A DNA stretch of 45,986 nucleotides, taken from positions 1-45,986 of IMG/VR virus record IMGVR_UViG_3300014888_000001; one strand, written 5' to 3'. Below, one piece after another: positions 5,026 to 41,455 of the stretch; within the stretch, counting starts at the first letter, position 1, and each line of letters begins with the position of its first letter. Made by a program: the position numbers and the translations under genes. The DNA is from a virus. Under the pieces are notes generated by a model. It saw nothing but the letters and a program-made list of their open reading frames with translations. It was not told where the DNA came from and ran no database searches.

Positions 5026-5069
5026 CAGCACAATTAGCTAAAGACAACAATCCACATTCGGATTAGTAT
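5026..5069 (+). promoter_or_regulatory. AGCAC-box promoter-like cassette H
   Basis: CAGCAC-aatta-GCTAAAGACA-17 bp (contains AATCC/GGATT hairpin)-TAGTAT; precedes the GAGGGTGA SD and ATG 5097. Confidence 0.55.
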
Positions 5070-5096
5070 TACCGCAACAACAACGAGGGTGATGAG

Positions 5097-5267
5097 ATGA
5101 AAAAGTTAACGGCTGAGTGGTGCAGGAATCACATCGAATCAATGAGAGCTAACGGTCTTAGCTTACTTGAAGAGTATTACGTGCAGGCCCTTGAGATTGC
5201 GCTGCCTGTACTCGAGCATCGGGAGAAGGGCAATGATGGTCGTGTCGATAATGCTGGCGTTGAATAA
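5097..5267 (+). CDS. Small hypothetical protein (56 aa, below the ORF-track cutoff)
   Basis: GAGGGTGATGAG SD then ATG 5097; MKKLTAEWCRNHIESM...; TAATG coupling to the next ORF. Confidence 0.45.
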   Translation: MKKLTAEWCRNHIESMRANGLSLLEEYYVQALEIALPVLEHREKGNDGRVDNAGVE

Positions 5268-5365
5268 TGAGTGACTTCTTCAATGAGCACGTTATGCGAT
5301 ATCACTGGGAGACTCTCAAGCGACGTCACGCTGAATGGGTCGCCCGTAGAAATGAGGATGAGTAA
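5267..5365 (+). CDS. Small hypothetical protein (32 aa)
   Basis: ATG overlaps the TAA of the previous ORF. MSDFFNEHVMRYHWETLKRRHAEWVARRNEDE fills the gap exactly up to 5366. Confidence 0.35.
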   Translation: MSDFFNEHVMRYHWETLKRRHAEWVARRNEDE

Positions 5366-5593
5366 TTGACACTACAAAAACAATTTGAAGCCCGAGCATC
5401 AGAGTTAGGATACAGCATCAGAAAGGATGAATCTGGCGAGTACAGCTATCACCCAACTCAGCGATTGTGGGGATGGTATCAGGCAGGTGCGCATAGCGTG
5501 CTGGATTATGGAGACCCTAACTTTTTGATGAGCGGAGAATGGCAATCAATCGCATCGTCGTGTGCGGGATTTAATCAGGTGTATGAGGGTTAA
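5366..5593 (+). CDS. Hypothetical protein (75 aa, TTG start)
   Basis: ORF track. GAGGATGAG lies 5 nt upstream of the TTG. Confidence 0.5.
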   Translation: MTLQKQFEARASELGYSIRKDESGEYSYHPTQRLWGWYQAGAHSVLDYGDPNFLMSGEWQSIASSCAGFNQVYEG

Positions 5594-5595
5594 AA

Positions 5596-6132
5596 ATGAA
5601 ACTTAAAGTATCAAAAATAATGCTGGAGTCAGCATTAATTTTTTCAGCAAAAAACGATATCCGTTATTACCTGAATGGCGTATGTTTTAAGCCTGGTGGG
5701 GTTTTTGCATCAACTGATGGGCATCGCCTTTTTTATGGCCAGCACGAAAATGACAACAAAGATGAAATTATCGTAAGTAACATCAAGTCGCCAACAAAAA
5801 AATACCATGAAGCTGTGTTTGATACCGAAACCGGAATTGTGGATTTTAACGATGACTCTGGAGTAAAGGTTGGCGTGTCATCATTTACTGTTGTTGACGG
5901 AAGGTTTCCAGATGTTGAGCGCATATTGCCAAAGAGCTTCCAGCCTGTTGATGCCATTGCATTCAATGCGGGCTACCTGGCAAGCATTGAGAAGGCGGCG
6001 AAGTTTTTCAACAATCGCTGGCAGAACGTGAAAATACAGTTCAGCGGCGAATCGAGCGCATCGGTGTGCGAGCTAAGGAGTCCATCCGGGGAGGTTGGTA
6101 AGATAGTAATAATGCCAATGCGTTTAGATTAA
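5596..6132 (+). CDS. Truncated DNA polymerase III beta sliding-clamp (DnaN) homolog, 178 aa
   Basis: NDIRYYLNGVCF, ASTDGHRLF, VVDGRFPDVERILPK and a C-terminal VIMPMRLD match DnaN hallmark strings (DVRYYLNG, ATDGHRLA, VDGRFPDYRRVLPK, VVMPMRL), but at about half the DnaN length. Confidence 0.75.
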   Translation: MKLKVSKIMLESALIFSAKNDIRYYLNGVCFKPGGVFASTDGHRLFYGQHENDNKDEIIVSNIKSPTKKYHEAVFDTETGIVDFNDDSGVKVGVSSFTVVDGRFPDVERILPKSFQPVDAIAFNAGYLASIEKAAKFFNNRWQNVKIQFSGESSASVCELRSPSGEVGKIVIMPMRLD

Positions 6133-6135
6133 AAC

Positions 6136-6159
6136 AAAGCCCCATTAAGGGGCTTTTTT
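6136..6159. terminator. Bidirectional hairpin terminator at a convergent block junction
   Basis: AAAGCCCC-attaa-GGGGCTTT followed by T6; A-rich on the 5' side. The Rz stop codon lies in the loop. Confidence 0.8.
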
Positions 6160-6684
6160 ACTTCCATCAGCGATGTACCCACCTGCCTGTAGTTTCCTGA
6201 TGTAGTCCTGCAGGTAGCGTATCTTTGCCTGGTCTTCTGTTATTCCGGTTCGGATATCGTAAACAGTTGCTCCAGCTTCTGAAGTGAGTCCGAGGGAGGC
6301 TGCATTGCCCACGCTGCCGGAGCTGGCGGTATTGCCTGCGGGGCGCTGACAGTCTGCAAGTTTTGACTGCGCGATGAGCACCCGGCGCTTGCCAGCAGCA
6401 ACATCGTTACGCAGAGCGGTATTATCTTTCTGAGCATTTTGTAGTTCCTGGGTTGATTGTGAGTCTAGATCTGCCAGGTGAGACTGCAGGTCATTTACCC
6501 GCTGCGTGGCGAGAGTCATTTCTTTTGCTGCTGATTCTGATAATGCGCGGCGCTCACCTGCGTATGTCGATTTTAACCGCTCTATTTCGGCCTGTGCGTG
6601 GTTATAATTAATAAACCACCCGGCAGTAGCTCCGAAGCAGAAAAACGCCGCATAGGGCCATACAGAGCTAAATATCGCCTTCAT
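6145..6684 (-). CDS. Rz: i-spanin (Rz-like)
   Basis: 179 aa with an N-terminal TM (AAFFCFGATAGWFI) and a coiled-coil periplasmic part. Last gene of the lysis cassette and contains the embedded Rz1. Confidence 0.8.
   Translation of the reverse strand: MKAIFSSVWPYAAFFCFGATAGWFINYNHAQAEIERLKSTYAGERRALSESAAKEMTLATQRVNDLQSHLADLDSQSTQELQNAQKDNTALRNDVAAGKRRVLIAQSKLADCQRPAGNTASSGSVGNAASLGLTSEAGATVYDIRTGITEDQAKIRYLQDYIRKLQAGGYIADGSKKAP
6240..6437 (-). CDS. Rz1: o-spanin lipoprotein (Rz1-like), fully embedded in Rz in another frame
   Basis: 65 aa. Signal plus lipobox LLLASAG|C, and a Pro-rich mature part (QAIPPAPAAWAMQPP). Confidence 0.75.
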   Translation of the reverse strand: MLRKIIPLCVTMLLLASAGCSSRSQNLQTVSAPQAIPPAPAAWAMQPPSDSLQKLEQLFTISEPE

Positions 6685-6943
6685 GCTTTACCTCCTCTGG
6701 CTGGTTAGCGTCTTCTACTTTCTGCTCAAGCCTGACCTGTTTGATGCGCATGCCGTGCATTTTGCCGAGCATCGCCATAACCAGGATGGAAAAGCTGATG
6801 GCCTTAACGTAGAGGGGAGGGATGGCGCTCTTCAGGTCTTCCGGCATCATGTTCCAGACCTGAAGCAGGGCGTCTGGCCAGAACTGCAGGGCCGTACAGA
6901 GTGACATCCATATGCCGATTAGCCAGTTAGATATTTTCTTCAT
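6668..6943 (-). CDS. Two-TMD membrane protein (holin or antiholin candidate)
   Basis: 91 aa. Hydrophobic segments WLIGIWMSLCTALQFW and AISFSILVMAMLG with a charged C-terminus. Sits between the endolysin and Rz. Confidence 0.55.
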   Translation of the reverse strand: MKKISNWLIGIWMSLCTALQFWPDALLQVWNMMPEDLKSAIPPLYVKAISFSILVMAMLGKMHGMRIKQVRLEQKVEDANQPEEVKHEGDI

Positions 6944-7521
6944 AACTTGCCGCCGAACTTAACGAAGGCATCGCGCATCTTCGTATGATAAGCATTAACT
7001 GCGAAACCGGCGCCGTTGTAGAGCCGGGCAACCGTTTCCCAGTCATTTCGCTTCAGTGCAGCTACGATATTCGGGTTGACTCTCAGAAAGCGGGTTGCCA
7101 GCTCAAGCTGTCCCTGGTCCGAATAGGCGGCGTTAACCAGCGACTGCACGCTGTCATAACCCAGCAGTTTCCAGTGGAAACCCATCACCTGAAAGGCTCC
7201 CCAGCTGCATGACTCCAGAGCGGACTTTCTGTCGATTGTCACGGCGCGCTGCAGTTTCGGGTGCTGTGCTGACAGCTTGCCGTACCCACCTGGCGAAGTG
7301 TTGCATATATCAGGGTCAGTTTTTGATACCGTATGGGCAAATGCCTTTCCGCGATTGGTGGTCAGCTGTCGATAGAAGATGTGTCGCTCGAAGAGAATCT
7401 TCACTTCTCCTGTCGGCAGGAAGCCATCTCCGCTGGACTCAACCTCCGCAAAGGCCTTGATGTGAGCAACTGACACGCCTAGCGAATCTGCGGCGCGCTG
7501 GTAGTCTTTTTCTGTAAGCAT
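6940..7521 (-). CDS. Endolysin, N-acetylmuramidase family (DUF3380/PF11860-like)
   Basis: Start trimmed to MLTEKDYQ (ATG 7521, GAGG SD). FAEVESSGDGF...ILFERHIFY...SWGAFQVMGFHW...LYNGAG motifs. Confidence 0.8.
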   Translation of the reverse strand: MLTEKDYQRAADSLGVSVAHIKAFAEVESSGDGFLPTGEVKILFERHIFYRQLTTNRGKAFAHTVSKTDPDICNTSPGGYGKLSAQHPKLQRAVTIDRKSALESCSWGAFQVMGFHWKLLGYDSVQSLVNAAYSDQGQLELATRFLRVNPNIVAALKRNDWETVARLYNGAGFAVNAYHTKMRDAFVKFGGKL

Positions 7522-7528
7522 GATTACC

Positions 7529-7918
7529 TCATTCTTGACGGCGGTCCAGGCCAGGAGCGGTGGTCTCTCGCCTGATGGTTTCAGTGATTCCTTTGATGAC
7601 TTCCGGGGCGTTATCGACGTTATGGAGGGAGCCACTTTGCCTGGCGAGTAGTGTGACAATGGCGTCAGACATCACACGATGCTGTTCAGTCCTCTGCCGG
7701 TCAAGTCGTGACATCTCATCATCACGTCGCTTGCGTGAGCGGTAGGTAAGCCACGCGAAGAACAGGCCGCCGAAAGTGCCAATGATAAATATAACGTTGT
7801 GCGGATTAAGAAGGGTGCCGACGCCACTGAGGACGCTGGTTGCTCCGCTGGTATAGGTCGATACCGGAGAGTGGATGATATCCGCTGCCCGCTGACCTAC
7901 GATGTCGGATAGCCTCAA
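7529..7918 (-). CDS. Single-TMD membrane protein (holin candidate), TTG start
   Basis: 129 aa. TM VIFIIGTFGGLFFAWL followed by RSRKRRDDE. GGAG 8 nt before the TTG. First gene of the lysis cassette. Confidence 0.5.
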   Translation of the reverse strand: MRLSDIVGQRAADIIHSPVSTYTSGATSVLSGVGTLLNPHNVIFIIGTFGGLFFAWLTYRSRKRRDDEMSRLDRQRTEQHRVMSDAIVTLLARQSGSLHNVDNAPEVIKGITETIRRETTAPGLDRRQE

Positions 7919-8006
7919 TCGCGATTCTCCGGTCTGAAGGGTAAAGTTTAGTTAACAGATGGAGGGTATCACGGAAGGGTATTTTTACGCCAGAAAATGC
8001 TTGAAG

Positions 8007-8036
8007 AAAAGCCCGCGATGTGCGGGCTGGTTTTTT
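8007..8036. terminator. Hairpin terminator after gene 8036..8599
   Basis: AGCCCGC-gatgt-GCGGGCT at 8010-8028. T6 on the plus side, TTTTCTT on the minus side. Confidence 0.5.
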
Positions 8037-8599
8037 CAGTTGTCGAACCAGAACACAATTCTCAGATCTTCCGCTTCAATCCCATCGAAGCCAGCAATAA
8101 TTTCTTCAATGCCACTGCCCAGGATAAAGCTCATAGGAACATCAATGCTAAAATTAACATATTCACTCATGTTGGTGGATTGGCAATATGGGTAGATAAC
8201 CATCCAGTTAGGCTCTGGCTTCTTAGCTTCTTCCTGTACTTTCGCCCATTGATCTCGATGCATCATACCATTGATGGTGGCTTTATCGTTCTTCACGATT
8301 TCAAAGGCAGCTTTAAGTTCACCGATGGTCAGGTAGCTATGGCTGTGACCATCAGCTCCCCACGCTTCACAGCACTTTTTTACCTCAGCAGATGCATCAG
8401 AAGGCATACCCTTGACATCGAATGACTTTTCGTGATGACGGCGCGTGCCTTTTGAAATGAAGCCAAACAGGTTGTAATTGCGGTCGCCGTAGTTACTTCT
8501 TTCGCAATAAAGCTCATCTTCTTCATTAGACCAATCATCAGCGGTTACCCACTGGCCGTTTACCTTCTTTTCTTTGAATAAATGAATATCACAGCCCAT
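8036..8599 (-). CDS. Hypothetical protein (187 aa, N-terminus MGCDIHL...)
   Basis: ORF track. GAGGGTGATAAAATG SD. Confidence 0.7.
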   Translation of the reverse strand: MGCDIHLFKEKKVNGQWVTADDWSNEEDELYCERSNYGDRNYNLFGFISKGTRRHHEKSFDVKGMPSDASAEVKKCCEAWGADGHSHSYLTIGELKAAFEIVKNDKATINGMMHRDQWAKVQEEAKKPEPNWMVIYPYCQSTNMSEYVNFSIDVPMSFILGSGIEEIIAGFDGIEAEDLRIVFWFDN

Positions 8600-8639
8600 T
8601 TTATCACCCTCAACGCCGCACCATTGCGGCTTGGATAAA

Positions 8640-8682
8640 ATAATACCCGCACTTGGCGGGTATGGTTATGCATAAAGTGCTA
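8640..8682 (-). promoter_or_regulatory. AGCAC-box promoter-like cassette A
   Basis: Sense: TAGCAC-tttat-GCATAACCA-17 bp-TATTAT. The spacer forms ATACCCGC-caagt-GCGGGTAT. Confidence 0.55.
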
Positions 8683-8922
8683 TCAGGAATATTTCTGCAG
8701 TATCTCGTTAATCCTGAGCCTGACGTCCATATCAACCACATTTCCGTATGATTCCTGCAGAATATTAATCACATCATCAGGAAGTCGTTGAGTGTTGGAA
8801 TAAAAAATAACATCATCGGGGTTGTTTTTATCCATTCTCATCGCGACAAAATCCGCATCGCCGTTAAGCATGTCTGATAGCTGCTTTCGTGCTACATAAG
8901 CGGTCATTGCTCGGTCTGGCAT
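8683..8922 (-). CDS. Hypothetical protein (79 aa)
   Basis: ORF track; co-oriented. Confidence 0.6.
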   Translation of the reverse strand: MPDRAMTAYVARKQLSDMLNGDADFVAMRMDKNNPDDVIFYSNTQRLPDDVINILQESYGNVVDMDVRLRINEILQKYS

Positions 8923-9011
8923 AAGTCATCCCCGACTGTGTGAATTTAACTTAACTCTATACGTATTTATTGACGAAGGTATCGGTTAATTCCTAATCGG
9001 ATTAATCTGCA

Positions 9012-9434
9012 TCAAAAATGAGTGCCACCACGATTAACAGGCCAGCAAACGCCATCAAAAGGGTCGGGGTCATATCTTTTAGGCTCCTCAGCCTTGCGGG
9101 TTTCTGCGTAGTTGAATCCAGTCTCGCTCGCCAGTAGTTTAGACGCGTTATCAGGGTGCAATGATACGACACTTGCCGCATCCTTGAGCGCATACTTTTT
9201 GGCAGCCATGCTGATGAGCATCCTGGTTCTTACTATCCTGACGTAATAACTTATTGGTGGCATGTTGTGGTGGATTATAAAATTCCTCAGGGTGAAAATG
9301 TTCCAGTTAAGAAAATTGCACAGGCGTGTAGCATTGCAGCGGCCTTGCTCCACAGCCTCCTCTATCTTCTGCATAAATTCATGTCGTGTGAGTCTGACTC
9401 CGCCACCAACGCTGATTCTCGGTTCTTCGCTCAT
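9012..9434 (-). CDS. Hypothetical protein (140 aa)
   Basis: ORF track. ATGA coupling with the upstream gene. Confidence 0.6.
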   Translation of the reverse strand: MSEEPRISVGGGVRLTRHEFMQKIEEAVEQGRCNATRLCNFLNWNIFTLRNFIIHHNMPPISYYVRIVRTRMLISMAAKKYALKDAASVVSLHPDNASKLLASETGFNYAETRKAEEPKRYDPDPFDGVCWPVNRGGTHF

Positions 9435-9676
9435 CGTTTAAACTCCCGAGCCTGTTTAATCACATCTTTTATGGTAATGCCCCCAACTACGCCAGGGATA
9501 ACCCGCGCGTTCTGGTGTGATAATTCATGCAACACGCTCACCTCTCCGCCTGCGTGAATCTCGATGTCTTTAATGGCGTCTTTGCCAAAGCAGCGCACGA
9601 TGGCGCTGATTCCTTCGGTTAATCCTGCTGAGTCCGCGTGCTGGCGGACGGAGGTGGGGCCGTGGTTGATTTTCAT
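9431..9676 (-). CDS. Hypothetical protein (81 aa; start trimmed to MKINHG)
   Basis: ATG 9676 forms an ATGA overlap with the stop of 9673..9963. Confidence 0.55.
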   Translation of the reverse strand: MKINHGPTSVRQHADSAGLTEGISAIVRCFGKDAIKDIEIHAGGEVSVLHELSHQNARVIPGVVGGITIKDVIKQAREFKR

Positions 9677-9963
9677 TTGAAGTCCTGCCCCCAAAACTCA
9701 ACGTTCTTGCCATCAACTTGCATCGCGCCAGCCAGCCATGAGTTCGCCTCATTGAAAGCACGTTCTGCCTTCTGTTCCTGGCTCAGCCAGTTGAAGATTA
9801 CTGCACGCTGCGCATTTCGGCGAGCTTCGTTCATGTGCTTATGGTCAACGGCGTATTCTTCACGATTGTAACGGACTGCAAGCTGCTCGTGAGATGCTGT
9901 TTCCGGGCATAGTGATTTCGGATCAGCCCAGTATTTTTCGCGAAGTTGGTTAATTGTCAGCAT
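9673..9963 (-). CDS. Hypothetical protein (96 aa; start trimmed to MLTINQL)
   Basis: ATG 9963 is preceded by a GAGGAA SD. Confidence 0.6.
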   Translation of the reverse strand: MLTINQLREKYWADPKSLCPETASHEQLAVRYNREEYAVDHKHMNEARRNAQRAVIFNWLSQEQKAERAFNEANSWLAGAMQVDGKNVEFWGQDFK

Positions 9964-10004
9964 TTTTGGTTCCTCGATAATGCCCGGCAAACCGGGCTGT
10001 ATTT

Positions 10005-10211: not shown

Positions 10212-10258
10212 TTGTTTACCCTCAATAATTAGCAGCACCTCGCCGCTCCATGCATACA

Positions 10259-10301
10259 AATATACCCGCACGCGGCGGGTATGGTTATGCAAATCGTGCT
10301 A
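10259..10301 (-). promoter_or_regulatory. AGCAC-box promoter-like cassette B
   Basis: Sense: TAGCAC-gattt-GCATAACCA-17 bp-TATATT with hairpin ATACCCGC-cgcgt-GCGGGTAT. The TAG of the box is the stop codon of 10299..10526. Confidence 0.55.
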
Positions 10302-10526
10302 TTTTGACTGCCCCTCAATGTTTCTGAGTATTTCCGACACGCATGAGTTCCAGATTGCTGCCAAGTCACGATTGCTAAATTTGACATCAACATAATCTTC
10401 TGCAGACTTTCTTGGTGGAACCAGCTCCCGGTTAGTCTCAGCTGAGTATTGCGCACTTTTAGCATTGCTTTCGCACTCTGCTTTGAGGGTGGCTATCTCC
10501 TGCTTCAGTCCATCTATATTCTCCAT
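10299..10526 (-). CDS. Hypothetical protein (75 aa)
   Basis: ORF track; abuts the HNH gene. Confidence 0.6.
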   Translation of the reverse strand: MENIDGLKQEIATLKAECESNAKSAQYSAETNRELVPPRKSAEDYVDVKFSNRDLAAIWNSCVSEILRNIEGQSK

Positions 10527-11024: not shown

Positions 11025-11077
11025 CTGTCATCTCCTGTGCAATGCCAGCCTTTCGACTGGCGATATTAGTTAGTTGT

Positions 11078-12256
11078 TTACCACTGAACAGCCAGTCCAG
11101 CGCCTACTGTCCACTGCTGCTGTGAATCATTACCTACTGACACCTTTCCGATGACTGAATCAGTCAGCTGAGAGGAGAATCCAACAGCTACCGCCTGCTC
11201 ACTTCCGCGCTGGCCCACTCCTACACCGGCAGAGAAGCGAGCGCCACCACTTACTTGCGGGATATTTGAAAACGCTGCTACTGCCGCAATGCCTGCATTA
11301 GCACTACGCTTGTTCTCATCAATGCGCTTATCGATATCAGAGAAGCGAGATGACGTATTTCGCTCAAGTTCGCCCAGGCGCTGCTCATGGTTGGCCAGTG
11401 TACGGCTGTGTTCTGCTACTCGCTCATTGGTGCGACGGATTGACTGACTGTTGGCCGCCGCATTGCTGAATGCCTGGTCAGCGCGTGATGCAGCATAATC
11501 GCCGGTGGCCTGCGCCTGGCTGATGCCCGCTGACAGTTGCACAACCTGAGATGCGCGGGTGCGAGCTTCCTGGCTGATAGCTGCGCTGTTCTGCGCGTCG
11601 CCGTCGATACGCTGCTGGCGGTCAGATTCCATCTGGCGATCCTGCACGCGCTGGCCTTCTTCCAGCTTATCGGAACGCACCTCTACGGCACCCACACGTC
11701 CATCCAGTACGCCCGTTTGTTTTTCGATACCATCCATACGAACAGCACCGGCGTCCGCTTTTTCGTGTGCCTGCTGGATCACAACATCCTGCCCGGCGTC
11801 ACGATCAGACTGCACGGCGGCGCCTGCGGTAATCCGCGCGCCCAGCGCATCATCGCCAGCTTTACGATCAGCATCGGCACGGGCAACCTTAACGTCAGTA
11901 TGAGAAACAGCGGTCTGATATGCTGAAGTAGCTTTCTTATCAGCGTAACCCTTAAGGTCGACTGACTGTTTTGCATCGATACCAGCCTGAGCTGTCACGG
12001 TTGCCGCCAGTGCTTTATCCTGACGCTGCTGATCGGAAGTGAATACTGACTTATCCAACTTATCGGCCTGCAATTTTCCAATGTTCGCACGGTCTTCAAG
12101 GCCCCATGATTCAGAGTACTTGGAGTTGACATTCATATGTGTCTGATGCAAGCCTGCTTTAAGGTCATCAATCTGCTGCTGAACGCCGTTATTTCCGGTT
12201 GCCTGAACTGCTCCTGATGCCATCATTACTGCCACTGCGATTAATGTTACTTTCAT
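11078..12256 (-). CDS. Trimeric autotransporter-like outer-membrane protein (signal peptide, coiled-coil stalk, YadA-type anchor)
   Basis: MKVTLIAVAVMMASGAVQA signal. Long Q/A/D/R-rich stalk. C-terminus NAGIAAVAAFSNIPQV...FSAGVGVGQ...AVAVGFS...VGAGLAVQW ends in an aromatic residue. Confidence 0.75.
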   Translation of the reverse strand: MKVTLIAVAVMMASGAVQATGNNGVQQQIDDLKAGLHQTHMNVNSKYSESWGLEDRANIGKLQADKLDKSVFTSDQQRQDKALAATVTAQAGIDAKQSVDLKGYADKKATSAYQTAVSHTDVKVARADADRKAGDDALGARITAGAAVQSDRDAGQDVVIQQAHEKADAGAVRMDGIEKQTGVLDGRVGAVEVRSDKLEEGQRVQDRQMESDRQQRIDGDAQNSAAISQEARTRASQVVQLSAGISQAQATGDYAASRADQAFSNAAANSQSIRRTNERVAEHSRTLANHEQRLGELERNTSSRFSDIDKRIDENKRSANAGIAAVAAFSNIPQVSGGARFSAGVGVGQRGSEQAVAVGFSSQLTDSVIGKVSVGNDSQQQWTVGAGLAVQW

Positions 12257-12303: not shown

Positions 12304-12345
12304 AATATATCTGATTAAGGATACTATGTTTAGCAAAAAGTGCTA
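12304..12345 (-). promoter_or_regulatory. AGCAC-box promoter-like cassette D (upstream of the autotransporter gene)
   Basis: Sense: TAGCAC-ttttt-GCTAAACA-17 bp-TATATT. The TAG is the stop of 12343..12528. A GGGGC/GCCCC hairpin follows in the leader. Confidence 0.55.
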
Positions 12346-12528
12346 CCCGCGATGATTGAATCCAAGACAGCAATCCAGCGTGCGGACAATGCCATAACCA
12401 GACAGCACCATGCTGAGCGTTAGTACAGATGCCAGTGCTGCATCATCGGTGAGGCCATACCAGATAGCTGACAGAGTGAAACCGCAGCTACAGGTGATGA
12501 TTGATGCAAGATATGCCAGGTTGATCAT
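12343..12528 (-). CDS. Small membrane protein (61 aa)
   Basis: Hydrophobic throughout (LAYLASIITCSCGFTLSAIWYGL...). ATGA coupling upstream. Confidence 0.55.
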   Translation of the reverse strand: MINLAYLASIITCSCGFTLSAIWYGLTDDAALASVLTLSMVLSGYGIVRTLDCCLGFNHRG

Positions 12529-12860: not shown

Positions 12861-12886
12861 GTGCTATCTCCTTAAATGATGAAGCC

Positions 12887-12929
12887 AGCATAATAGCTGG
12901 CTTTAAAGTTGGTTAGGCAGAAAGTGCTA
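12887..12929 (-). promoter_or_regulatory. AGCAC-box promoter-like cassette C
   Basis: Sense: TAGCAC-tttct-GCCTAACCA-17 bp-TATGCT. AAGCCAGC/GCTGGCTT hairpin. The TAG is the stop of 12927..13448. Confidence 0.5.
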
Positions 12930-13448
12930 TTCAATTTTCACGCCGGGGATTTCACCGGCTGCGATGGCGTCGTAGATTAAACCAGCCGTGACCTCTAAAA
13001 GAACAGCGCTGCAATTAATCATTGCCTTGATAGCTTCATCACGCTTGCGCTCTGCTTCGGTGCGGATAGGGCGGAACCGATCTGTCCTCTCAGCAAGGCA
13101 ATAAACTACCTCATAGCCTAAATCGGTTCTTTCGGTGACGACGTATTTTTCACCTACAAATTTAATTACGACAGGGTTCCACTCATCGCAGTCGAAAAGC
13201 TCACATTCACAACCGGCCGGAGGCAGACCATCGCCAGACCACTCATCCTCCTTTGATGCTGCAAGAGCGGCCTCGTATTCACCTTTGTAAATGCGATGAT
13301 TTGAGCTCTTGTCAGTGAAATACAGTGTTCCATTAAGTTCCTTTGTCCAATACCCGCAGGGCAACTTCATGCGCACGGCTGAGTCGATAGTTTTGGGCCA
13401 GCCCCCTGACTTATTAAATTCAGGAACTAACAAATCAATCAGTTTCAT
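12927..13448 (-). CDS. Hypothetical protein (173 aa)
   Basis: ORF track; 4-nt overlap with the upstream gene. Confidence 0.65.
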   Translation of the reverse strand: MKLIDLLVPEFNKSGGWPKTIDSAVRMKLPCGYWTKELNGTLYFTDKSSNHRIYKGEYEAALAASKEDEWSGDGLPPAGCECELFDCDEWNPVVIKFVGEKYVVTERTDLGYEVVYCLAERTDRFRPIRTEAERKRDEAIKAMINCSAVLLEVTAGLIYDAIAAGEIPGVKIE

Positions 13449-14054: not shown

Positions 14055-14368
14055 TCACTTACCTCGAATTTAATTTGTTTAAGTTGTTTAACTCTGCGTT
14101 CGAGCGATGCAATCTCCTTCCTGCGCATCACCTCGGCCTTTGCTACTGCCTGCCGCTCACTTAGCTCGAACTCACCATTTTTGTAGTAGTCCGTTGAAGT
14201 GAATGCTACCTTACCTCCGGCTTCTAGTTTTGCGTTTTCGTGCTGTATCCCACGCGTGAGCGAATATTTCGTTATCCAGATATCAGCAAATATTTCATCA
14301 GCACGAGCCACTGCACATGCAGCAATCAGCAGAACAGGAGCGCCGATAGCCACGCAACACCACTTCAT
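14051..14368 (-). CDS. Putative lipoprotein (105 aa; start trimmed to MKWCCV)
   Basis: ATG 14368 overlaps the primase stop (ATGA). MKWCCVAIGAPVLLIAA|C is lipobox-like. Confidence 0.55.
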   Translation of the reverse strand: MKWCCVAIGAPVLLIAACAVARADEIFADIWITKYSLTRGIQHENAKLEAGGKVAFTSTDYYKNGEFELSERQAVAKAEVMRRKEIASLERRVKQLKQIKFEVSE

Positions 14369-22086: not shown

Positions 22087-23060
22087 CAATTAAAATCTTC
22101 TCCAGCGAAGAGCTAAGCAACAACGATTATCATGCAGAAACCGAACACGTATCTGGATCGCAACTGCATAAGCTGTTCATCACCAGCCCGGCATCGTTCA
22201 GGTACGGCGTTGCAGAGGATGAGGAACCGCAGGATAAATCGCGCCCCCTTAACTTCGGTAGCTGCGCGCATACCAACCTTCTTGAGCCGGAAAAGTTCCA
22301 TGCCGAATACATTCGCGGGACGATGAAGGATGACAAGCTGGACGGTATTTTCCTTACTACCCAGGCGGCGTGCGGAAAGTTTCTTACCGACAGGGGAATC
22401 AAGGGCCACTCCGGGAAGAAATACCCGGAACTGATTCAGATGGTGAAGTCCGCAACTAAGCCTGGCGAGGTTGTTCGGGTATTGGCAGAGATTGAGCAGC
22501 AAGAGGAAGAGGATGCTAAATCAACCGCGCGCACCATTATCCGTGGCGATGACTTCGACGCCTGCCTGAAGATGCGCGAGGTGCTTTACCAGAATGGCGA
22601 TGTGCGGCACATCATCGGCACCGGCCAGCCAGAGGTTAGCTGCTTCGCTGAGATTGATGGCGTGCCGGTTAAGGTGCGGTGGGACTATGTTTATGACTGG
22701 TCAATCATGGACTATAAGACTACCATCAGTGCCCATCCAGAGCAGTTCAGCCGTCAGTGCTTTAACGCTGGTTATTACCTGAAGATGGCGCTACAGCATG
22801 ACGTGTTTGAGCTGGCTTATGGTCGCAAACCTGCTGCGGTTAAGCTGCTGGCACAGGAGAAGAAACACCCATTCATTCCGGTGATGTATCGCATGACCGA
22901 AGAGCAACTGCATATCGGTCGAATGATGTACAAGTCAGCCCTGCAGCAGTATCGGGCATGCCGTGAGCGTGACGTTTGGCCGGCATACGGCGGCGGCGCA
23001 GAAATGGAGTTACAGACTCCGGGGTTCGTTAAAAACCAGTATAAGGATTTCATCAAATGA
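22083..23060 (+). CDS. PD-(D/E)XK recombination exonuclease (RecE/DUF3799-like)
   Basis: NNDYHA...VSGSQL N-terminus, FGSCAHTNLLEP, VRWDYV...IMDYKTT. Immediately upstream of erf. Confidence 0.65.
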   Translation: MTIKIFSSEELSNNDYHAETEHVSGSQLHKLFITSPASFRYGVAEDEEPQDKSRPLNFGSCAHTNLLEPEKFHAEYIRGTMKDDKLDGIFLTTQAACGKFLTDRGIKGHSGKKYPELIQMVKSATKPGEVVRVLAEIEQQEEEDAKSTARTIIRGDDFDACLKMREVLYQNGDVRHIIGTGQPEVSCFAEIDGVPVKVRWDYVYDWSIMDYKTTISAHPEQFSRQCFNAGYYLKMALQHDVFELAYGRKPAAVKLLAQEKKHPFIPVMYRMTEEQLHIGRMMYKSALQQYRACRERDVWPAYGGGAEMELQTPGFVKNQYKDFIK

Positions 23061-23710
23061 TTCTCAGCGAAAACAGCAGCAACTTCATCAAGGCGTTCTT
23101 TGAGGTTCGTTCGCTTATCAGTGGAAAGGTGGAGAAGAATACAGCGAATAACCACCTTAAGAGCAAGTATGCTGACCTTGGTTCTGTATTCAAAGCCATT
23201 ACGCCAGCACTTGAGGCCAACCGAATCCTGCCAATTCAGAGCGCCACTATGAACGACCGGGGGCAGGTGGAGGTTGTTACGGTGCTTATGCACGATAGCG
23301 GGGAGAGCGCCACCTTTACCAGTTGCATCCCTCTGGCCAAGGCTGACGCCCATGGATTTGGTAGCGCATTCACCTATGCGCGCCGCTACTCTCTAATGGG
23401 TATCTTCGGCCTGGTTCCGGCGGACGATGACGGCAACGCATCTCGCAAGACAGCGAAAGACGTCACTAAGGCGATGGATAAGGCTGAAGATTTGCCAGCA
23501 ATGGATAAGGTGCTTGAGCACGCTAAGCAATACTTCTCTGGTGACTCAGCAAGCCTGCGAGTGATACAGTCTCACTACGACAAGCGAAAGGCTGACATGC
23601 AGGCGGATAGTGCGGTAGGATTCAATCCACTTAAGCCGGTTCAAAAGGCAGCAGCACAGCAACCATCAGCGCCAGTTGGCGAAGATTTAAACCCTATTGA
23701 AGAATTCTGA
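23057..23710 (+). CDS. erf: ERF-family single-strand annealing protein
   Basis: KSKYADLGSV...ITPAL...LMHDSGES...HGFGSAFTYARRYSLMGIFGLVPADDDGNA. Confidence 0.8.
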   Translation: MILSENSSNFIKAFFEVRSLISGKVEKNTANNHLKSKYADLGSVFKAITPALEANRILPIQSATMNDRGQVEVVTVLMHDSGESATFTSCIPLAKADAHGFGSAFTYARRYSLMGIFGLVPADDDGNASRKTAKDVTKAMDKAEDLPAMDKVLEHAKQYFSGDSASLRVIQSHYDKRKADMQADSAVGFNPLKPVQKAAAQQPSAPVGEDLNPIEEF

Positions 23711-23724
23711 TAAGAGAGATAACC

Positions 23725-24195
23725 ATGCACGTAATCACCGGAACCATCCGCAAAGCGCCATATACAAAGACAGGAAGCAACTCTAAGGGCGATTGGAAGC
23801 TATATGCCATTGAGCTTTCAGAGTCATGGAAGGATAAGGAAGGGCAGCGTCATTATTCAAATTACCGTGCGTCGATGTTTGCCAGCACGCCTGGCAGCAT
23901 CGGATATAACGATGAAGTGCTGGTAGAGGGAGCAGTTGTATCGATTTCATCAGAGTGTTTGCAGGTTGTATCTCGCGAGAGCAACGGCAAGATGTATACT
24001 CACTTGGAGATGATTCAGCCTCGCGTTGTGTTTGCCAAGGCACCTGAAGGTGCTGCGCCTCAGCAACAGGCGCCACAGCAACAGCGTGCACCACAACAGT
24101 CACAGCAGAGCGCGCCGCCAGCTGACTTCGACTCGGACATCCCCTTTGCTCCAGTCGGCCTGCAGTATGCAAGCCACGCCATTTACTCAATTTAA
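23725..24195 (+). CDS. ssb: SSB-like protein with a Q/P linker and an internal DFDSDIPF motif
   Basis: 156 aa. Position after erf. QQQAPQQQRAPQQSQQSAPPADFDSDIPF followed by 15 further residues. Confidence 0.55.
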   Translation: MHVITGTIRKAPYTKTGSNSKGDWKLYAIELSESWKDKEGQRHYSNYRASMFASTPGSIGYNDEVLVEGAVVSISSECLQVVSRESNGKMYTHLEMIQPRVVFAKAPEGAAPQQQAPQQQRAPQQSQQSAPPADFDSDIPFAPVGLQYASHAIYSI

Positions 24196-24204
24196 GGATC
24201 AACC

Positions 24205-24402
24205 ATGAAAAGCAACCTGAAGAAGTTACGTGAAAAGGCAGAGTTAAGCCAGCCACAACTGGCGCAGTTATCCGGCGTGAGTCAGCAGACGATCAGCAAG
24301 ATTGAGATGGAAGAGGATGGATACTCGCCGAAGCATGATACGCTGGTCAGCATCGGAAATGCGTTAGGTGTTCATCTTGATGAAATAACAAATGTCAAAT
24401 GA
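24205..24402 (+). CDS. XRE-family HTH transcriptional regulator (65 aa)
   Basis: LREKAELSQPQLAQLSGVSQQTISKIE is a canonical HTH_3 pattern. Confidence 0.8.
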   Translation: MKSNLKKLREKAELSQPQLAQLSGVSQQTISKIEMEEDGYSPKHDTLVSIGNALGVHLDEITNVK

Positions 24403-37547: not shown

Positions 37548-37569
37548 GATAAACCTCTCAGTAAGTTAT

Positions 37570-37593
37570 AAAAAAGCCGCCCATGTGAGCGGC
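37570..37593 (-). terminator. Rho-independent terminator/attenuator after the major capsid gene
   Basis: Minus sense: GCCGC-tcacatgg-GCGGC followed by TTTTTT. Confidence 0.65.
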
Positions 37594-37620
37594 ATTTCTT
37601 AGAGTATATCAGCTATTTTC

Positions 37621-38661
37621 TCAAACGCCGAGCATTGATGACACGGCCAGCGGCTGAGTGATAACAGCGCCGTATGTTGCACCAGAATACTTCTGCTTCC
37701 AGTAGGAAGTCATGGTAATCAGCGGGTGAGCGCGCAGCTTGTCGCTGTATGCCAGATAACCGGTCTGCTGACCCTGAATTTCCGTAGCCATCATCTGCAC
37801 CAGTTCGCCAGCCGGAGTGCTGTACTGAGGTGCGACAACGAAGCGGATGTTAAGGAAGGAGTCGCGGACCATCTTCTCAACGGTGTTGCCGAAGATTTCG
37901 TTGGCACGCTTGAACCACACGGAAACCTGAGGAGACATCGCCAGCACCAGGTTGGATGCCATGTTAATGCCGTCACCGAGGATGCCGTTGGTGCGGGTAA
38001 TCAAATCCTGATACAGCGCCAGAATATCGTTGTAGATACCCAGCACGGACTTGTTTTCCCAGCGAACAGCACCAGCCGCGTTAGGGTCAGGGATTGGGCT
38101 GATTGAAGCTGGCAGGTCAGGGTCATTCAGGATGCCGAAGTTATCAATACCCGCAACGCCGAAGAAGTAGAACTTGTTCGCCGCCTGGTTCAGGGTGATA
38201 GCTGCCGCACGCTGCTTTTCTGCTGCATATGCCAGACCGGTAAGGCCCATGCGCTCCTGCTCCAGCTCACCGTAAGTTACCATAGTCTGATAGCGGTAAA
38301 CTGAGCGGTTTTCCCATGAGTTAGTAACCTGCACCGCGCCATCTTCGCTGTAGTCTTCATACGCCACTACGCGACCAGTTGGCTCAACGCGCTGGATCAT
38401 AATGTTATCCTGCGCCCACGAACCCATGCGTTTCTCAGGGAAAAGCTCCTGAGATACCAGGTTGGCAAACACGGTGCGCACAACAACCGGGTCGATGAAG
38501 CTGGAGACGATCGCCGGGATTCCGCCGTTTGGTGGCAGCATTGGCTGAGGGTCGGCATCGTTAGCCAGATGCAGCTTATTCACCGTTGCCGGCAGGTTCA
38601 CGCCTTTAGCTTTGGCGGCTGCCATGAAGGCGGAGAAATCCGCCTGAGTTAATTGAGTCAT
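37621..38661 (-). CDS. Major capsid protein (DUF2184-like)
   Basis: 346 aa. Preceded by the scaffold/protease and a small head protein and followed by a terminator. Family assignment from memory. Confidence 0.75.
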   Translation of the reverse strand: MTQLTQADFSAFMAAAKAKGVNLPATVNKLHLANDADPQPMLPPNGGIPAIVSSFIDPVVVRTVFANLVSQELFPEKRMGSWAQDNIMIQRVEPTGRVVAYEDYSEDGAVQVTNSWENRSVYRYQTMVTYGELEQERMGLTGLAYAAEKQRAAAITLNQAANKFYFFGVAGIDNFGILNDPDLPASISPIPDPNAAGAVRWENKSVLGIYNDILALYQDLITRTNGILGDGINMASNLVLAMSPQVSVWFKRANEIFGNTVEKMVRDSFLNIRFVVAPQYSTPAGELVQMMATEIQGQQTGYLAYSDKLRAHPLITMTSYWKQKYSGATYGAVITQPLAVSSMLGV

Positions 38662-39173
38662 TATGCTTTGCTCCAGGAAGAGATGATAATCAGGTCGCCA
38701 ACAGGAGCGCCATGAGCAACGGTGTAGTTAGTTTCAACGTGACCAGCAACGGTAGCGCCAGCAGCACCGGTGGCAATTGAGCCATCGGTAACGCTTGCAA
38801 ATACTTTCTGGCCAGCAGTAGCAACGGTGCTTGATTTAGCCCAGAAGTCGCCACCAACCTTCGGTGATACGCCGCGACCTGGTGGCACCATCATTGAGTT
38901 GGAGTCGAAGTAGCCGACATAACCCTGCAGCACGTTCTGAATGAAGCCAACCGGGATAGATGTGGCAGATGGCGCAACGGTGGTCACAACGATAGTTTCG
39001 TCATCGCCTGCTGGCACTTCTGCGCGGAACACGAAGCGACCGATGCGAACGCCATTCTCGCCAGCGCGGTATGCATCAGGGCCGCCAGATGCTGCGATAA
39101 TTGGAGCTGTGCCTGCTGGCTGAGCTTCAGCGCCAACACCTAAAAACAGGCCTACGGAAGTCTGAAAAGCCAT
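38661..39173 (-). CDS. Head protein adjacent to the capsid gene (decoration/cement candidate, 170 aa)
   Basis: Gly/Ala-rich; position immediately upstream of the capsid gene. Confidence 0.4.
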   Translation of the reverse strand: MAFQTSVGLFLGVGAEAQPAGTAPIIAASGGPDAYRAGENGVRIGRFVFRAEVPAGDDETIVVTTVAPSATSIPVGFIQNVLQGYVGYFDSNSMMVPPGRGVSPKVGGDFWAKSSTVATAGQKVFASVTDGSIATGAAGATVAGHVETNYTVAHGAPVGDLIIISSWSKA

Positions 39174-39175
39174 GA

Positions 39176-40312
39176 TTATTCACCTTTAAAGAAGTCAGAA
39201 ACGCGGGCGCGCGAATCATTGTTAATGACCGGCGCAGAATCCTGAGCCATCTTGTTGCTCTGCAGCATTTCAACCATTGGCTTGAGAGCGGAGGCGTGCA
39301 GGGATTCAACACCATGAATGCCTTTCTGCTTCAGAGCCATGCGGTAGACTTCTTCTGCTGAATCGCATGCTACGCGGCCAATCAGCGGCTCGCACATCTG
39401 CTCAGCCTCACGCAACTCGCGGAACTGTGAGCGCATGCGGGTTTCGAGTGCATCCATAGCCAGGCGTGAATCCTTAGCCATCTTATCATCCTTCTCGCGG
39501 TCTTTGCGCTCACGCTCTTCTTCTTCGCGCTTCTCGCGGGCCATGCGTTCAGCTTCACTTTCGCCATTATCCTGATCGTTGGCGGTCTTTGGCTTGTCTT
39601 TATCCTTGCCATCTTCATCTTCATCATCGACGATTTTGGCGACTTGTTCCTTCACTTCGTCCGGGTTTGAATCTTTTGCCAGACGGGGCAGAATGGTGGC
39701 CCACAGCTTTTCGAGTTTAGACATTACGTCGTATCCTTTGGGTTTGGAGTCGTACACTAAAACGTCAGGGCCTGCCCGTCCGTCTGGAACGATAGCGACA
39801 TGATTAAAGACGATATCTCTCATCACGCCGTCGTATTCCTCCCCATTATACACACCGGGCGTCATATCTGCACGATATCGATAAGAGGAGGAAATTTCAC
39901 GCTGCTGGCCGGACTCAATGCCAGCAATAGAAGCTGAATCCCAGTTCACCATCGAGTTGTACAGGTAAGGGTGATCGAACTCTGCATTCTCTCCGGTTGA
40001 ACCGACGACCGCGTCTTTTGGTGGTGCTGACGCAAGAAAGGGGAGGTGAGTGTTTAGCAGTGGGCGGCGATTGGCTGATGGTACTGCCTTCTTTAGCTCT
40101 TCCGGGCATCGCAGCATTTTATACATGCGATCGGGCTGTAGGCCCATTTCCTCACTGCCTGGAATCTCTTTTCCGTAGTATCCATTGACGCACGCCTTTG
40201 TAATTGGCGTGCGTGCGATGTGCATGACGCCATCAACGTCCATTGTGCGAACGCTGGCGCGATCGAAGGCTAACAGGCTATGCATTGATGCAGCATGGCT
40301 GGCAGTGGTCAT
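39176..40312 (-). CDS. DUF2213-like prohead scaffold/protease
   Basis: N-terminal DUF2213-like region (VNGYYGKEIP...LLNTHLPF...) plus a highly charged DE/K-rich coiled C-terminal half. Start uncertain (ATG 40312 or TTG 40333). Confidence 0.6.
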   Translation of the reverse strand: MTTASHAASMHSLLAFDRASVRTMDVDGVMHIARTPITKACVNGYYGKEIPGSEEMGLQPDRMYKMLRCPEELKKAVPSANRRPLLNTHLPFLASAPPKDAVVGSTGENAEFDHPYLYNSMVNWDSASIAGIESGQQREISSSYRYRADMTPGVYNGEEYDGVMRDIVFNHVAIVPDGRAGPDVLVYDSKPKGYDVMSKLEKLWATILPRLAKDSNPDEVKEQVAKIVDDEDEDGKDKDKPKTANDQDNGESEAERMAREKREEEERERKDREKDDKMAKDSRLAMDALETRMRSQFRELREAEQMCEPLIGRVACDSAEEVYRMALKQKGIHGVESLHASALKPMVEMLQSNKMAQDSAPVINNDSRARVSDFFKGE

Positions 40313-40347
40313 TTGTTGCAATCGCCTTATCAATCAGAATTATCAGC

Positions 40348-40376
40348 ATTATGCAACGGAGTGGATTAGAACGCAA
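40348..40376 (-). promoter_or_regulatory. Sigma70-like promoter upstream of the scaffold gene
   Basis: Minus sense: TTGCGT, 17 bp, CATAAT. Confidence 0.3.
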
Positions 40377-40424
40377 CAGGCGGGTGTTTTAAGCGGGGAA
40401 AGCGCCCGAAGGCGCCTGTTTAGT

Positions 40425-40742
40425 TTATTTTAACTCTTCAGGAATTTCCGGAACGGTAACGTGCTCCCACCATTCCGAGCCGTCATACTCCACGCGCTGT
40501 GAGAATGTGCCATCTTTGTACCAAATTATTCCGAAAAGAAGCTGGCCGCCGTAGCCACTGTTGTAATCGAAATCAATTGTCTGCAAGAAATTATCAAGCC
40601 CTGATGCCGTGAACCCGACATTTAATCTCATGGGTTTGTTATCTTCATCCCAGTCATATCCGTATGTCAATTTAGCACACAAAACATCCGGCATTCCCTC
40701 GCCGAGTGCGTGATATACAAACTCATCTTTAGCGTTAATCAT
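40425..40742 (-). CDS. Hypothetical protein (105 aa) in the head-module insert
   Basis: ORF track; coupled to the upstream ORF. Confidence 0.6.
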   Translation of the reverse strand: MINAKDEFVYHALGEGMPDVLCAKLTYGYDWDEDNKPMRLNVGFTASGLDNFLQTIDFDYNSGYGGQLLFGIIWYKDGTFSQRVEYDGSEWWEHVTVPEIPEELK

Positions 40743-40993
40743 TATTTAACTCCAAGTGCTTTGTTGATGACAGCATGCGCATTTGCCAGTGCTGCCGAGT
40801 TTGCCTTTGTTGGCTTGCTAAACAAGATCATCATTTCTAAAGCATCCAGCAACTCCGCATTAACTTCCTGATGATATGAAATCATCCACTGGATGACCTC
40901 TGATGTGTCGAAATGACGCAGGCCATCTATGTAAGATGGGTTGGCTCCTTCCTTTAGCTGCTCATAAATTTCTTTATCAGTCATTTTATTCAT
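40742..40993 (-). CDS. Hypothetical protein (83 aa)
   Basis: ORF track (ATG 40993). Confidence 0.55.
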   Translation of the reverse strand: MNKMTDKEIYEQLKEGANPSYIDGLRHFDTSEVIQWMISYHQEVNAELLDALEMMILFSKPTKANSAALANAHAVINKALGVK

Positions 40994-41165
40994 CACCTTC
41001 TAACGCCATATATGCCAGAGCAAGATAGAATCCTGCTTCATCTTTCTTTCCTGCCTTTTCCGCATTCTCGCGCGCAATCTTCAGGATTTGCATTTGCTTA
41101 TCGAACTCTTCTTCGTAACCACAATCACGAGCATGGATTTTAAACTCGCTCAGGAAGTACATCAT
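40986..41165 (-). CDS. Hypothetical protein (59 aa; start trimmed to MMYFLSEF)
   Basis: ATGA overlap with the stop of 41162..41389. Confidence 0.5.
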   Translation of the reverse strand: MMYFLSEFKIHARDCGYEEEFDKQMQILKIARENAEKAGKKDEAGFYLALAYMALEGDE

Positions 41166-41389
41166 TCCACAATCTCCCACTCACCATGCGCGCACTCAGG
41201 GTAAATGCAGAAATTAACGCGACCAAAATCGTTGATGATTTCAAAATTACAGCTTCCTTCAATGTAGCCATACATGGCGCTCTTGTCGCCATCCGCCGCC
41301 GTAATGACGTATTCACGGTCAACCGTTAAATAGGTTGTGCCCTCACTCAAACCCACGCACCGAACTTTATCGCCTTTCTTCATCATCAT
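41162..41389 (-). CDS. Small protein (75 aa), paralog of 16001..16192
   Basis: GLSEGTTY...IINDFGRVNFCIYPECAHGEWEIVE aligns with GLTEGKEY...IMSDVGLVTLIRLGFPCAVGEWEEVK. Confidence 0.65.
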   Translation of the reverse strand: MMMKKGDKVRCVGLSEGTTYLTVDREYVITAADGDKSAMYGYIEGSCNFEIINDFGRVNFCIYPECAHGEWEIVE

Positions 41390-41413
41390 CGCCTCATTTG
41401 TTTTGATGAGGCA

Positions 41414-41455
41414 ATCATATCTTAATCAGGAATTAATTTTTATCAAAAAGTGCTA
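41414..41455 (-). promoter_or_regulatory. AGCAC-box promoter-like cassette E (inside the head module)
   Basis: Sense: TAGCAC-ttttt-GATAAAAA-17 bp-TATGAT (alternative TTGATA-N16-TAAGAT), followed by a GCCTCAT/ATGAGGC leader hairpin. Confidence 0.55.

Follow-up and report, generated by a model that had tools for sequence, protein, structure and literature searches.

The window analysed here is the whole stretch of 45,986 nucleotides of the IMG/VR virus record IMGVR_UViG_3300014888_000001, which looks like the complete, circularly permuted genome (approx. 46 kb) of a virulent-looking phage with a contractile tail. It contains eight copies of a promoter-like cassette, each headed by a conserved AGCAC box, and these cassettes are the subject of the present analysis. 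Genes for portal, MuF-like protein, protease, capsid, sheath, baseplate and fibres are present. The head and packaging genes are nearest to those of Jedunavirus, Pectobacterium PEAT2 and Edwardsiella MSW-3 (TerL 63-68% identical, 67% to Jedunavirus), and a T1-like replication and recombination module comprises primase, HelA helicase, VRR-NUC-like protein, RecE, Erf, SSB and methyltransferase with identities of 34-47%. GenBank contained no close nucleotide-level relative of the window, and a scan of bacterial genomes with the window primase returned no relatives. The relatives used for comparison are the IMG/VR genomes IMGVR_UViG_3300011832_000004 (loci L001, L158 and L353), 3300009092_000007 (L354 and L288), 3300013307_000010 (L206 and L356) and 2974674742_000001 (L231), the first being the closest with a primase 89% identical to that of the window. 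The window itself was 100% present in two plant-metagenome runs from 2016, of DNA type only.

All eight cassettes were found at the positions and on the strands given in the initial annotation, and the observation of an eightfold repeat was confirmed as real and correctly described (Table 1). Every cassette is intergenic, in a genome that is approx. 94% coding and 6% non-coding, and is oriented like the next gene. The genes behind the cassettes belong to replication (G and F), lysis (A), the head (E) and accessory functions. The TAG of the box doubles as the stop codon of the upstream open reading frame (ORF) in cassettes B (ORF 10299-10526), C (12927-13448) and D (12343-12528), and the boxes of the divergent, adjoining cassettes G and F make up the inverted repeat GTGCT-N10-AGCAC. 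Also as initially described, the box is absent from both consensus promoters of the window, 1929-1901(-) and 2426-2453(+).

Table 1. Cassettes and neighbouring features of the window. Start sites were inferred from the sequence, approx. 7 nt past the -10 hexamer.
Feature	Coordinates	Strand	Box	-10 hexamer	Inferred start	Repeats and hairpins	Genes
Cassette H	5026..5069	+	CAGCACAATTAGCTAAAGACA, 5026-5046	TAGTAT 5064-5069	~5076	inverted repeat AATCC/GGATT 5049-5064	heads ORF 5097-5267 and following genes
Cassette A	8640..8682	-	8682-8663	TATTAT 8645-8640	~8633	8-bp GC-rich hairpin 8663-8643, then T run; terminator-like	ORF 8036-8599; lysis genes further downstream, past terminator 8010-8028
Cassette B	10259..10301	-	10301-10282	TATATT 10264-10259	~10252	hairpin 10282-10262	next ATG 10211
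Cassette D	12304..12345	-	perfect dyad TAGCA-N5-TGCTA	TATATT 12309-12304		ATCC-N6-AGAT repeat 12322-12309	heads adhesin-like ORF 11078-12256
Cassette C	12883..12929	-	12929-12910	TATGCT 12892-12887 (initial annotation)	~12880	predicted 8-pair hairpin 12903-12882; core arms AGCCAGC/GCTGGCT 12902-12883; TATTAT 12895-12890 in loop	
Cassette G	16225..16268	-	16268-16248	CAATAT 16230-16225, TG-extended	~16218	hairpin ACATCC/GGATGT 16250-16233	heads ORF 16001-16192 through primase 14365-15309
Cassette F	16277..16319	+	16277-16296	TAAAGT 16314-16319; -35-like TTGCTT		no hairpin	replication and recombination operon 16349-24402
Cassette E	41414..41455	-	41455-41436	TATGAT 41419-41414	~41407		between MuF-like gene 41481-42287 and small ORFs, then head protease and capsid genes
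Indel unit	8029..8686	-					cassette A plus ORF 8036-8599 (phrog_10141); absent from closest relative
TerS	274-687						
TerL	43692-45083						

AGCAC and a G at position 12 are present in all eight cassettes, TAGCAC in six and a TAA following the G in seven. The boxes end in TAACCA, TAAAGACA or TAAACA, not in TAAAAC, and their spacers fall into the subclasses TTT (A, C, D, E and F), GAA or GAT (G and B) and AAT (H). The -10 hexamers start at positions 37-39, TATATT occurring twice and cassette C offering either TATGCT or TATTAT. The seventh or eighth base past the -10 is an A, often within CAT, and the extended -10 TG is mostly absent. The -35-like hexamers match the consensus at only three to four of six positions, and cassette D alone passed a 9-of-12 sigma-70 scan. 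An ATG with a strong Shine-Dalgarno (SD) sequence follows the box after 66-90 nt (mean 77). A spacing of exactly 17 bp between the hexamers had been proposed; this figure turned out to be partly an effect of how the -35-like block (8-10 nt) had been delimited. The true constant is the distance from the start of the box to the start of the -10, which amounts to 36-38 nt in the eight cassettes.

The pattern TAGCAC-N5-G has eight matches in the window, six of which are cassettes, and the exact 12-mer TAGCACTTTTTG has three copies, one each in D, E and F. For YAGCACNNNWWG 10 matches were counted in the window compared with 3.6 +/- 1.9 in dinucleotide shuffles, and one of 100 shuffles reached 10. 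A position weight matrix built from the eight copies, a check suggested in the initial annotation, assigned 20-30 bits to the cassettes and 14 bits to the next site, which lies inside a coding region; as the matrix was trained on the same eight copies, this shows only that further copies do not exist in the window.

Comparison with the relatives revealed that seven of the eight cassettes have a counterpart at the same position in the closest genome, and that orthologous cassettes keep the box, the spacing and the -10, the spacer sequence drifting. In the closest relative H corresponds to a cassette of locus L353 (position 4496, minus strand), D to one of L001 (position 7823) and C to one of L001 (position 7240); C has another orthologue in L206 (position 5179), and orthologues of E were found in L353, L354 and L356 plus locus L355. 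Both the box and the -35-like block of G are unchanged in L001 and L206. The same two loci share an unchanged ATAGCACTTTTTG with cassette F, the remainder of which has diverged, and in the L206 orthologue of F the -10 lies approx. 11 bp further off and a better -35 is present.

A 21-nt direct repeat with the consensus aaATAGCACnnnTTGnTAAAA was reported from phage TLS by German, Kropinski, Misra and co-authors (PMC11447400). Its 18 intergenic copies (DR1-18) all run along transcription approx. 76 nt upstream of start codons, fall into the spacer classes AAA, TTT and GAA, are maximally conserved at ATAGCAC and TAAAA, and have similar counterparts in T1, Rtp and Rogue1 (PMC11447400). A stoperator, an enhancer site and an UP element were raised as options by the authors, who in 2024 listed the function of the repeat among the open questions on T1-like phages, and when we searched the literature for work on how the repeat functions, nothing beyond this paper was returned (PMC11447400). 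In our own count TLS and T1 contain approx. 20 copies each. Judged by sequence and layout, the YAGCAC-N5-G(C)TAA box of the window is the same element as this T1/TLS repeat. Common to both are the core (YAGCAC, then TTG or WWG, then TAA), the spacer subclasses, the intergenic position, the orientation, the distance to the start codon (approx. 76 nt in TLS vs 66-90 nt in the window), the distance to the -10 hexamer and the hairpins nested in the unit. The window differs in its copy number (8 vs 18-21), in the 3' part of the box, which reads GCATAACCA, GCTAAAGACA or GCTAAACA instead of G(C/T)TAAAAC, in an extended -10 TG that is mostly lacking, and in the carrier, a myovirus with Jedunavirus-like head and tail genes rather than a T1-like siphovirus (Drexlerviridae). 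This last mismatch characterises the carrier genome rather than the element. The box is absent from the Jedunaviruses KpV52 and ZCEC13, the closest cultured phages by structural genes. An IMG/VR scan for the exact 16-mer TAGCACTTTTTGCTAA returned more than 120 contigs, many of them approx. 50 kb in length; two were checked by BLAST, and both were T1-like (Klebsiella phage Sin4, L308; an IsaakIselin-like phage, L297).

Within the T1-like phages, AAA-class boxes at T1 8363 and 25022 and at TLS 24909 are located only 20-33 nt ahead of the start codons of the genes for the small terminase and tail fibre J, where they overlap the ribosome binding site. They lack a -10 at the usual distance, so that this subclass may work differently.

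Across phages, 327 unique cassettes from 54 loci were aligned on the box. Information peaks outside the search pattern were obtained for AA just before the box, TT at positions 10-11, CTAAAAC at 13-19, TG at 35-36 (G at 36, extended -10), T-A-T-A-A/G-T at 38-43 and C-A at 49-50, followed by an A-rich leader. A -10 match of at least five of six within positions 25-70 was found for 260 of 391 unique boxes, and in 229 of these 260 it was located at position 37-39. With the start placed at position 50, the box spans about -49 to -32, and there is no -35 consensus. The fixed distance of the box to the -10 (often extended) and to the CA start in hundreds of cassettes, together with the layout kept by the orthologues, bears out the promoter-type cassette of the initial annotation, and the assignment of the cassettes as putative promoters is supported by this comparison. 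A sigma-54 (-24/-12) promoter was considered and rejected. The sigma-54 consensus is GG-N10-GC with an invariant GG, and the box halves resemble its TGGCAC and TTGCW; the box, however, reads AG-N8-GC, which is 2 bp short and carries AG in place of GG.

The hairpins of the eight cassettes are of uneven quality. A and B contain a perfect 8-bp GC-rich stem with a T run, G a stem of 6 bp and H one of 5 bp. The predicted stem of C consists of seven Watson-Crick pairs and a closing A-U, in D and E weak stems in the spacer are joined by a hairpin in the leader, and F lacks hairpins. Fold z-scores of single cassettes were modest, ranging from -3.2 (C) to +1.3. Family-wide, a stem of at least 6 bp at positions 18-58 was present in 218 of 351 cassettes compared with 106 +/- 10 after shuffling; it was located in the spacer in 66 cases, overlapped the -10 in 122 and enclosed it in 30. 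Because the stem sequences vary between cassettes, structure rather than sequence appears to be selected. Since the hairpins lie upstream of or across the inferred start, they can fold only in DNA or in transcripts that read through from upstream. Terminator-like GC-rich stems with a T run occur in A, B and their equivalents in L001, L206, L231, T1 and TLS, and three terminators annotated in the T1 record are hairpins nested inside cassettes. The most economical reading of the hairpins would be an insulation of each unit from upstream transcription.

A similar arrangement is represented by the promoter-early stem-loops (PeSLs) of the T4-type phages RB49 and phi1, for which promoter activity, terminator activity and mini-circles were shown experimentally (PMC2839356, PMC4122927). 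Like the cassettes, PeSLs consist of an upstream stop codon, an upstream element, a promoter, a stem-loop between or over the hexamers, an SD sequence and a start codon, and in both systems the units flank small variable genes and mark indel or replacement junctions. The stem-loops of PeSLs act as terminators, insulation from upstream transcription having been demonstrated for them; of the stems in A, B, C, G and H, only those of A and B are predicted to resemble intrinsic terminators. PeSLs differ in having consensus -35/-10 hexamers and a plain AT-rich upstream region with no AGCAC box, and the window cassettes are known from sequence alone. One RB43 promoter carries the exact box upstream of its -35.

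Two further structures were noticed around the -10. An ATCY-N6-RGAT inverted repeat abuts it in H (5050-5063), D (12309-12322) and G (16235-16248), as well as in orthologous cassettes of the relatives. This repeat is not over-represented genome-wide (4 matches vs 3.1 expected) and could be a second protein-binding site or merely a preferred hairpin. In E (41389-41410, minus strand), CCTCAT just past the -10 can pair with an ATGAGG containing the SD sequence of ORF 41162-41389. The inferred start of E lies within the 5' arm of this CCTCAT/ATGAGG structure, so that only read-through RNA would mask the ribosome binding site.

In the mechanism that we propose, the box would act in cis as an upstream element of a promoter of sigma-70 type that has a good -10 and no real -35, and would occupy about -49 to -32. 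It would recruit or position the host RNA polymerase holoenzyme by contact with the alpha C-terminal domains, with sigma region 4 or with a conserved host DNA-binding protein. Transcription would start approx. 7 nt past the -10, in many cases with the A of a conserved CAT, and the transcript would begin with a short A-rich leader followed by a strong SD sequence. A hairpin between box and -10 would stop or attenuate transcripts from upstream and thereby insulate the unit. By its recurrence the same unit of approx. 45 bp would offer a short-homology joint, at which small gene units could be gained, lost or swapped. That the box is a host-read upstream promoter element, and most likely not the site of a phage-specific activator, is a reading to which we assign an even chance. 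It is favoured because no shared regulator was found and because consensus promoters of RB43 and a T5-like phage carry the box at a greater upstream distance.

The first of these arguments is based on the gene content. Families common to the window and T1/TLS are primase, HelA, VRR-NUC-like, RecE, Erf, SSB, HNH and three head proteins, in addition to a small phrog_2817 protein and, in TLS only, the methyltransferase. BLAST and iterative HMM searches detected no regulator common to the window group and the T1-like phages, and the regulator family of TLS gp57 was absent from the window group in the same searches. The phrog_2817 protein (ORF 9431-9694) is the only shared small protein that is uncharacterised, and its gene is itself box-driven. 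As only about a dozen families are shared with T1-like phages, the phage-encoded candidates are sharply narrowed, and the phrog_2817 protein is the sole uncharacterised one left. The 5' half of the box, unlike the variable promoter-proximal half, does not change between lineages that share replication proteins at no more than 34-47% identity.

The second argument concerns a different register of the box. The exact 16-mer is found 24-25 nt upstream of a consensus TTGAC(T) -35 in the T4-type phage RB43 (L274:3424) and in Proteus phage Stubb (L296:6021), where the copy belongs to the pre-early region of a T5-like phage. The L206 orthologue of F shows the same second register with the box displaced by approx. 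one helical turn in the upstream direction. For their pre-early and early promoters, T5- and T4-type phages depend on the host polymerase alone. Strong sigma-70 promoters such as rrnB P1 and the T5 early promoters carry UP elements, and the box resembles these in its location (-60 to -38 or one turn closer), in a TTTT-NNN-AAA part that fits the UP consensus and, for RB43, Stubb and L206, in a consensus -35 that follows closely. It differs from them by the invariant AGCAC, which is not known from any UP consensus, and, in T1-like phages as in the window, by its overlap with the -35 position. The box also fits the Lrp consensus, YAGHAWATTWTDCTR, at 13 of 15 positions; the right half of this match is not conserved in the window, and we keep it as a lead only.

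Several points weigh against a host-read element. The start sites of the promoters are predicted ones, and the second register is represented by approx. three independent cases (RB43, Stubb and L206), with approx. 28 chance matches of the 16-mer expected in the collection by our own rough estimate from an assumed collection size. The invariant G/C bases (AGCAC and G12) are unlike an A/T-rich UP element and suggest base-specific contacts of a dedicated protein. An imperfect dyad, TAGCA-N5-TGCTA, is centred near -42, where a class II activator classically binds. Both the window and TLS have a few consensus promoters that precede small early genes and lack the box, a layout that fits an immediate-early activator, and a diverged or non-homologous phage factor may be compatible with our sequence searches.

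In an alternative in line with the initial annotation, a phage-encoded activator, of class II, Mor/C-like or MotA-like type, would turn on the weak, -35-less promoters after immediate-early expression from the box-less consensus promoters, which we regard as possible but doubtful. Activator-dependent promoters of this type are known from phage Mu, in which Pm depends on Mor and the late promoters depend on C. With them the cassettes share a good -10, the lack of a -35 and an imperfect dyad, which spans about -51 to -33. In sequence the box is unrelated, and no Mor/C-family Pfam match was obtained among the small window ORFs scanned. An activator would account for a box that is centred near -42 in the place of the -35 and for its partial dyad, which is perfect in D and in many T1-like copies. 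The promoter-proximal half-site, however, is poorly conserved in the window, and a C at position 1 is never compensated at position 15. Also in favour of an activator, both strong box-less promoters of the window precede small conserved early ORFs, one of which, encoding a 67-aa protein at 1668-1871, is conserved in three relatives despite a hypervariable early region. TLS contains three consensus promoters (P01, P51 and P57), of which P57 drives the helix-turn-helix (HTH) regulator gp57, and in the window the place of gp57 is occupied by ORF 15299-15586 with a low-confidence three-helix core (pLDDT 59). No Pfam or PHROG match was obtained for the small early ORFs, and the AlphaFold model of the 67-aa protein had no significant structural match (best E-value 0.19), comparison with the PDB yielding weak winged-helix-like matches only. 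The gene of this protein, on the minus strand, lies behind the strongest consensus promoter, and its model (pLDDT 88) has the order helix-strand-helix-strand-strand. Further objections are that the cassettes serve genes of all functional classes, that the box does not co-vary with the phage lineage, that no homologous regulator common to the two phage groups was found, and that copies occur in T4-type and T5-type phages with different regulators. The distinct, activator-dependent middle class of promoters proposed in the initial annotation was not sustained in that form, given the range of genes served, the absence of a shared regulator from the search results, the lineage-invariant box and the presence of the 16-mer at sigma-70 promoters in RB43 and the T5-like phage.

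As the options raised for TLS include a stoperator (PMC11447400), a shut-off operator bound by a phage repressor was considered as well, the model being gp71 of mycobacteriophage L5. L5 stoperators are asymmetric intergenic sites oriented with transcription (cited in PMC11447400). The cassettes are likewise numerous, asymmetric, intergenic and co-oriented, and the box overlaps the -35 region. In L5, however, the site binds the prophage repressor of a temperate phage and is not phased to a -10, strict phasing to -10 and start being no stoperator property, and a site upstream of the -35 would be unusual for a roadblock. The phage looks virulent, and no lysogeny genes, integrase or CI-type repressor were seen among the window ORFs scanned; one Cro/CI-type HTH protein is encoded at 24205-24402. 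We consider a stoperator improbable.

With regard to a role of the cassettes in gene exchange, the window was compared with its closest relative, seven cassettes lying in the compared regions. The unit of cassette A and ORF 8036-8599 is missing from the relative; its left junction is located inside the box (ATAG|CAC) and its right junction, CCAG|CCCGC, at the terminator 8010-8028. The B-type cassette of the relative matches cassette A with 91% identity over 47 nt. B and E form short conserved islands flanked by non-homologous DNA, and the small genes that directly follow B, E and F have been exchanged for others. Homology breaks were thus found at A, B, E and F, and none at C, D and G. The shuffling of small genes at cassettes suggested in the initial annotation holds in outline as a correlate of repetition, as seen from the junction in the A box and the B and E islands, and not as a demonstrated mechanism. 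An explanation in which the cassettes primarily serve recombination or mobility, for instance as targets of homing endonucleases or as exchange points of the PeSL type, and resemble promoters only secondarily, could draw on these junctions, on HNH endonuclease genes that often come first after a cassette in T1 and TLS, and on the shuffling mediated by the PeSLs of T4-type phages (PMC2839356, PMC4122927). Since only four of the seven cassettes coincide with homology breaks, any repeated sequence would act as a recombination joint, and the phasing of -10, start and leader is left unexplained, we regard it as very improbable.

Very improbable as well is an action of the box in RNA, in which a 15-nt UAGCA-N5-UGCUA stem-loop would serve as processing, antitermination (boxB-like) or stability signal of read-through transcripts immediately ahead of the terminator hairpin. 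D and many T1-like copies can fold such a stem of 5 bp around a 5-nt loop, and in A and B the box directly precedes terminator-like hairpins, but the box lies upstream of the inferred start and is absent from the RNA it would control, no sense transcript covers the boxes of the divergent F and G, the 3' half of the dyad is lost in A, C, E and F, and compensatory changes are missing, a C at position 1 never being paired with a G at position 15.

Other features of the genome were noted alongside the cassettes. A LAGLIDADG intein splits the HelA-type helicase gene (17976-21176, plus strand), extending from CLTGDSLI at approx. 18432 to VANGVIAHN|C at approx. 19700. Its frame is broken twice (0, 2, 0), giving the overlapping ORFs 17976-18917, 18752-19618 and 19530-21176, which could result from assembly errors, a decaying intein or a separately translated endonuclease. 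Another endonuclease ORF (phrog_681, HNH-related; 45068-45850, minus strand) lies between the TerL gene and, across the window ends, the TerS gene. Three direct copies of the 23-nt ATGCCAGGCGAATATGGGCGCTG are located at 979-1079 in a non-coding stretch upstream of the TerS gene that contains no AGCAC box; they may represent a pac site, a terminase-binding site or a late control region. Between the divergent consensus promoters 1929-1901(-) and 2426-2453(+), TGMTACTTCCACGTTA occurs directly at 1998 and 2040 and inverted at 2293-2306, and these copies look like operators of an early regulator. The Klebsiella Jedunavirus KpV52 has a different promoter cassette, several of its annotated promoters carrying a TTGACG-N3-CGTCA(A) palindrome across the -35.

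Beyond the repeat described from T1-like phages, our analysis adds its occurrence in a different virion lineage, the phasing to -10 and start in numbers, a second register, an indel junction at the level of the box and a narrowed list of factors. The element reaches beyond the Drexlerviridae and would travel with, or suit, a different virion type, in which it would control replication, lysis and head genes. Tentatively, the AGCAC box may define an uncharacterised promoter class of several virulent enterobacterial phage families, namely the T1-like siphoviruses and the myovirus lineage of the window, with single copies in T4-type and T5-type phages, and this class may have one trans-acting partner, either a host protein or a diverged phage protein. 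The comparative evidence for promoters consists of a box phased to -10 and start in two registers one helical turn apart. Standard promoter predictors miss such cassettes, a plain sigma-70 scan having flagged one of eight (D). The short list of shared genes makes the choice between a phage activator and a host factor directly testable, and if the phrog_2817 protein fails as partner, the host would be the likely source. For a whole group of uncultured phages the cassettes would be the main candidate promoters.

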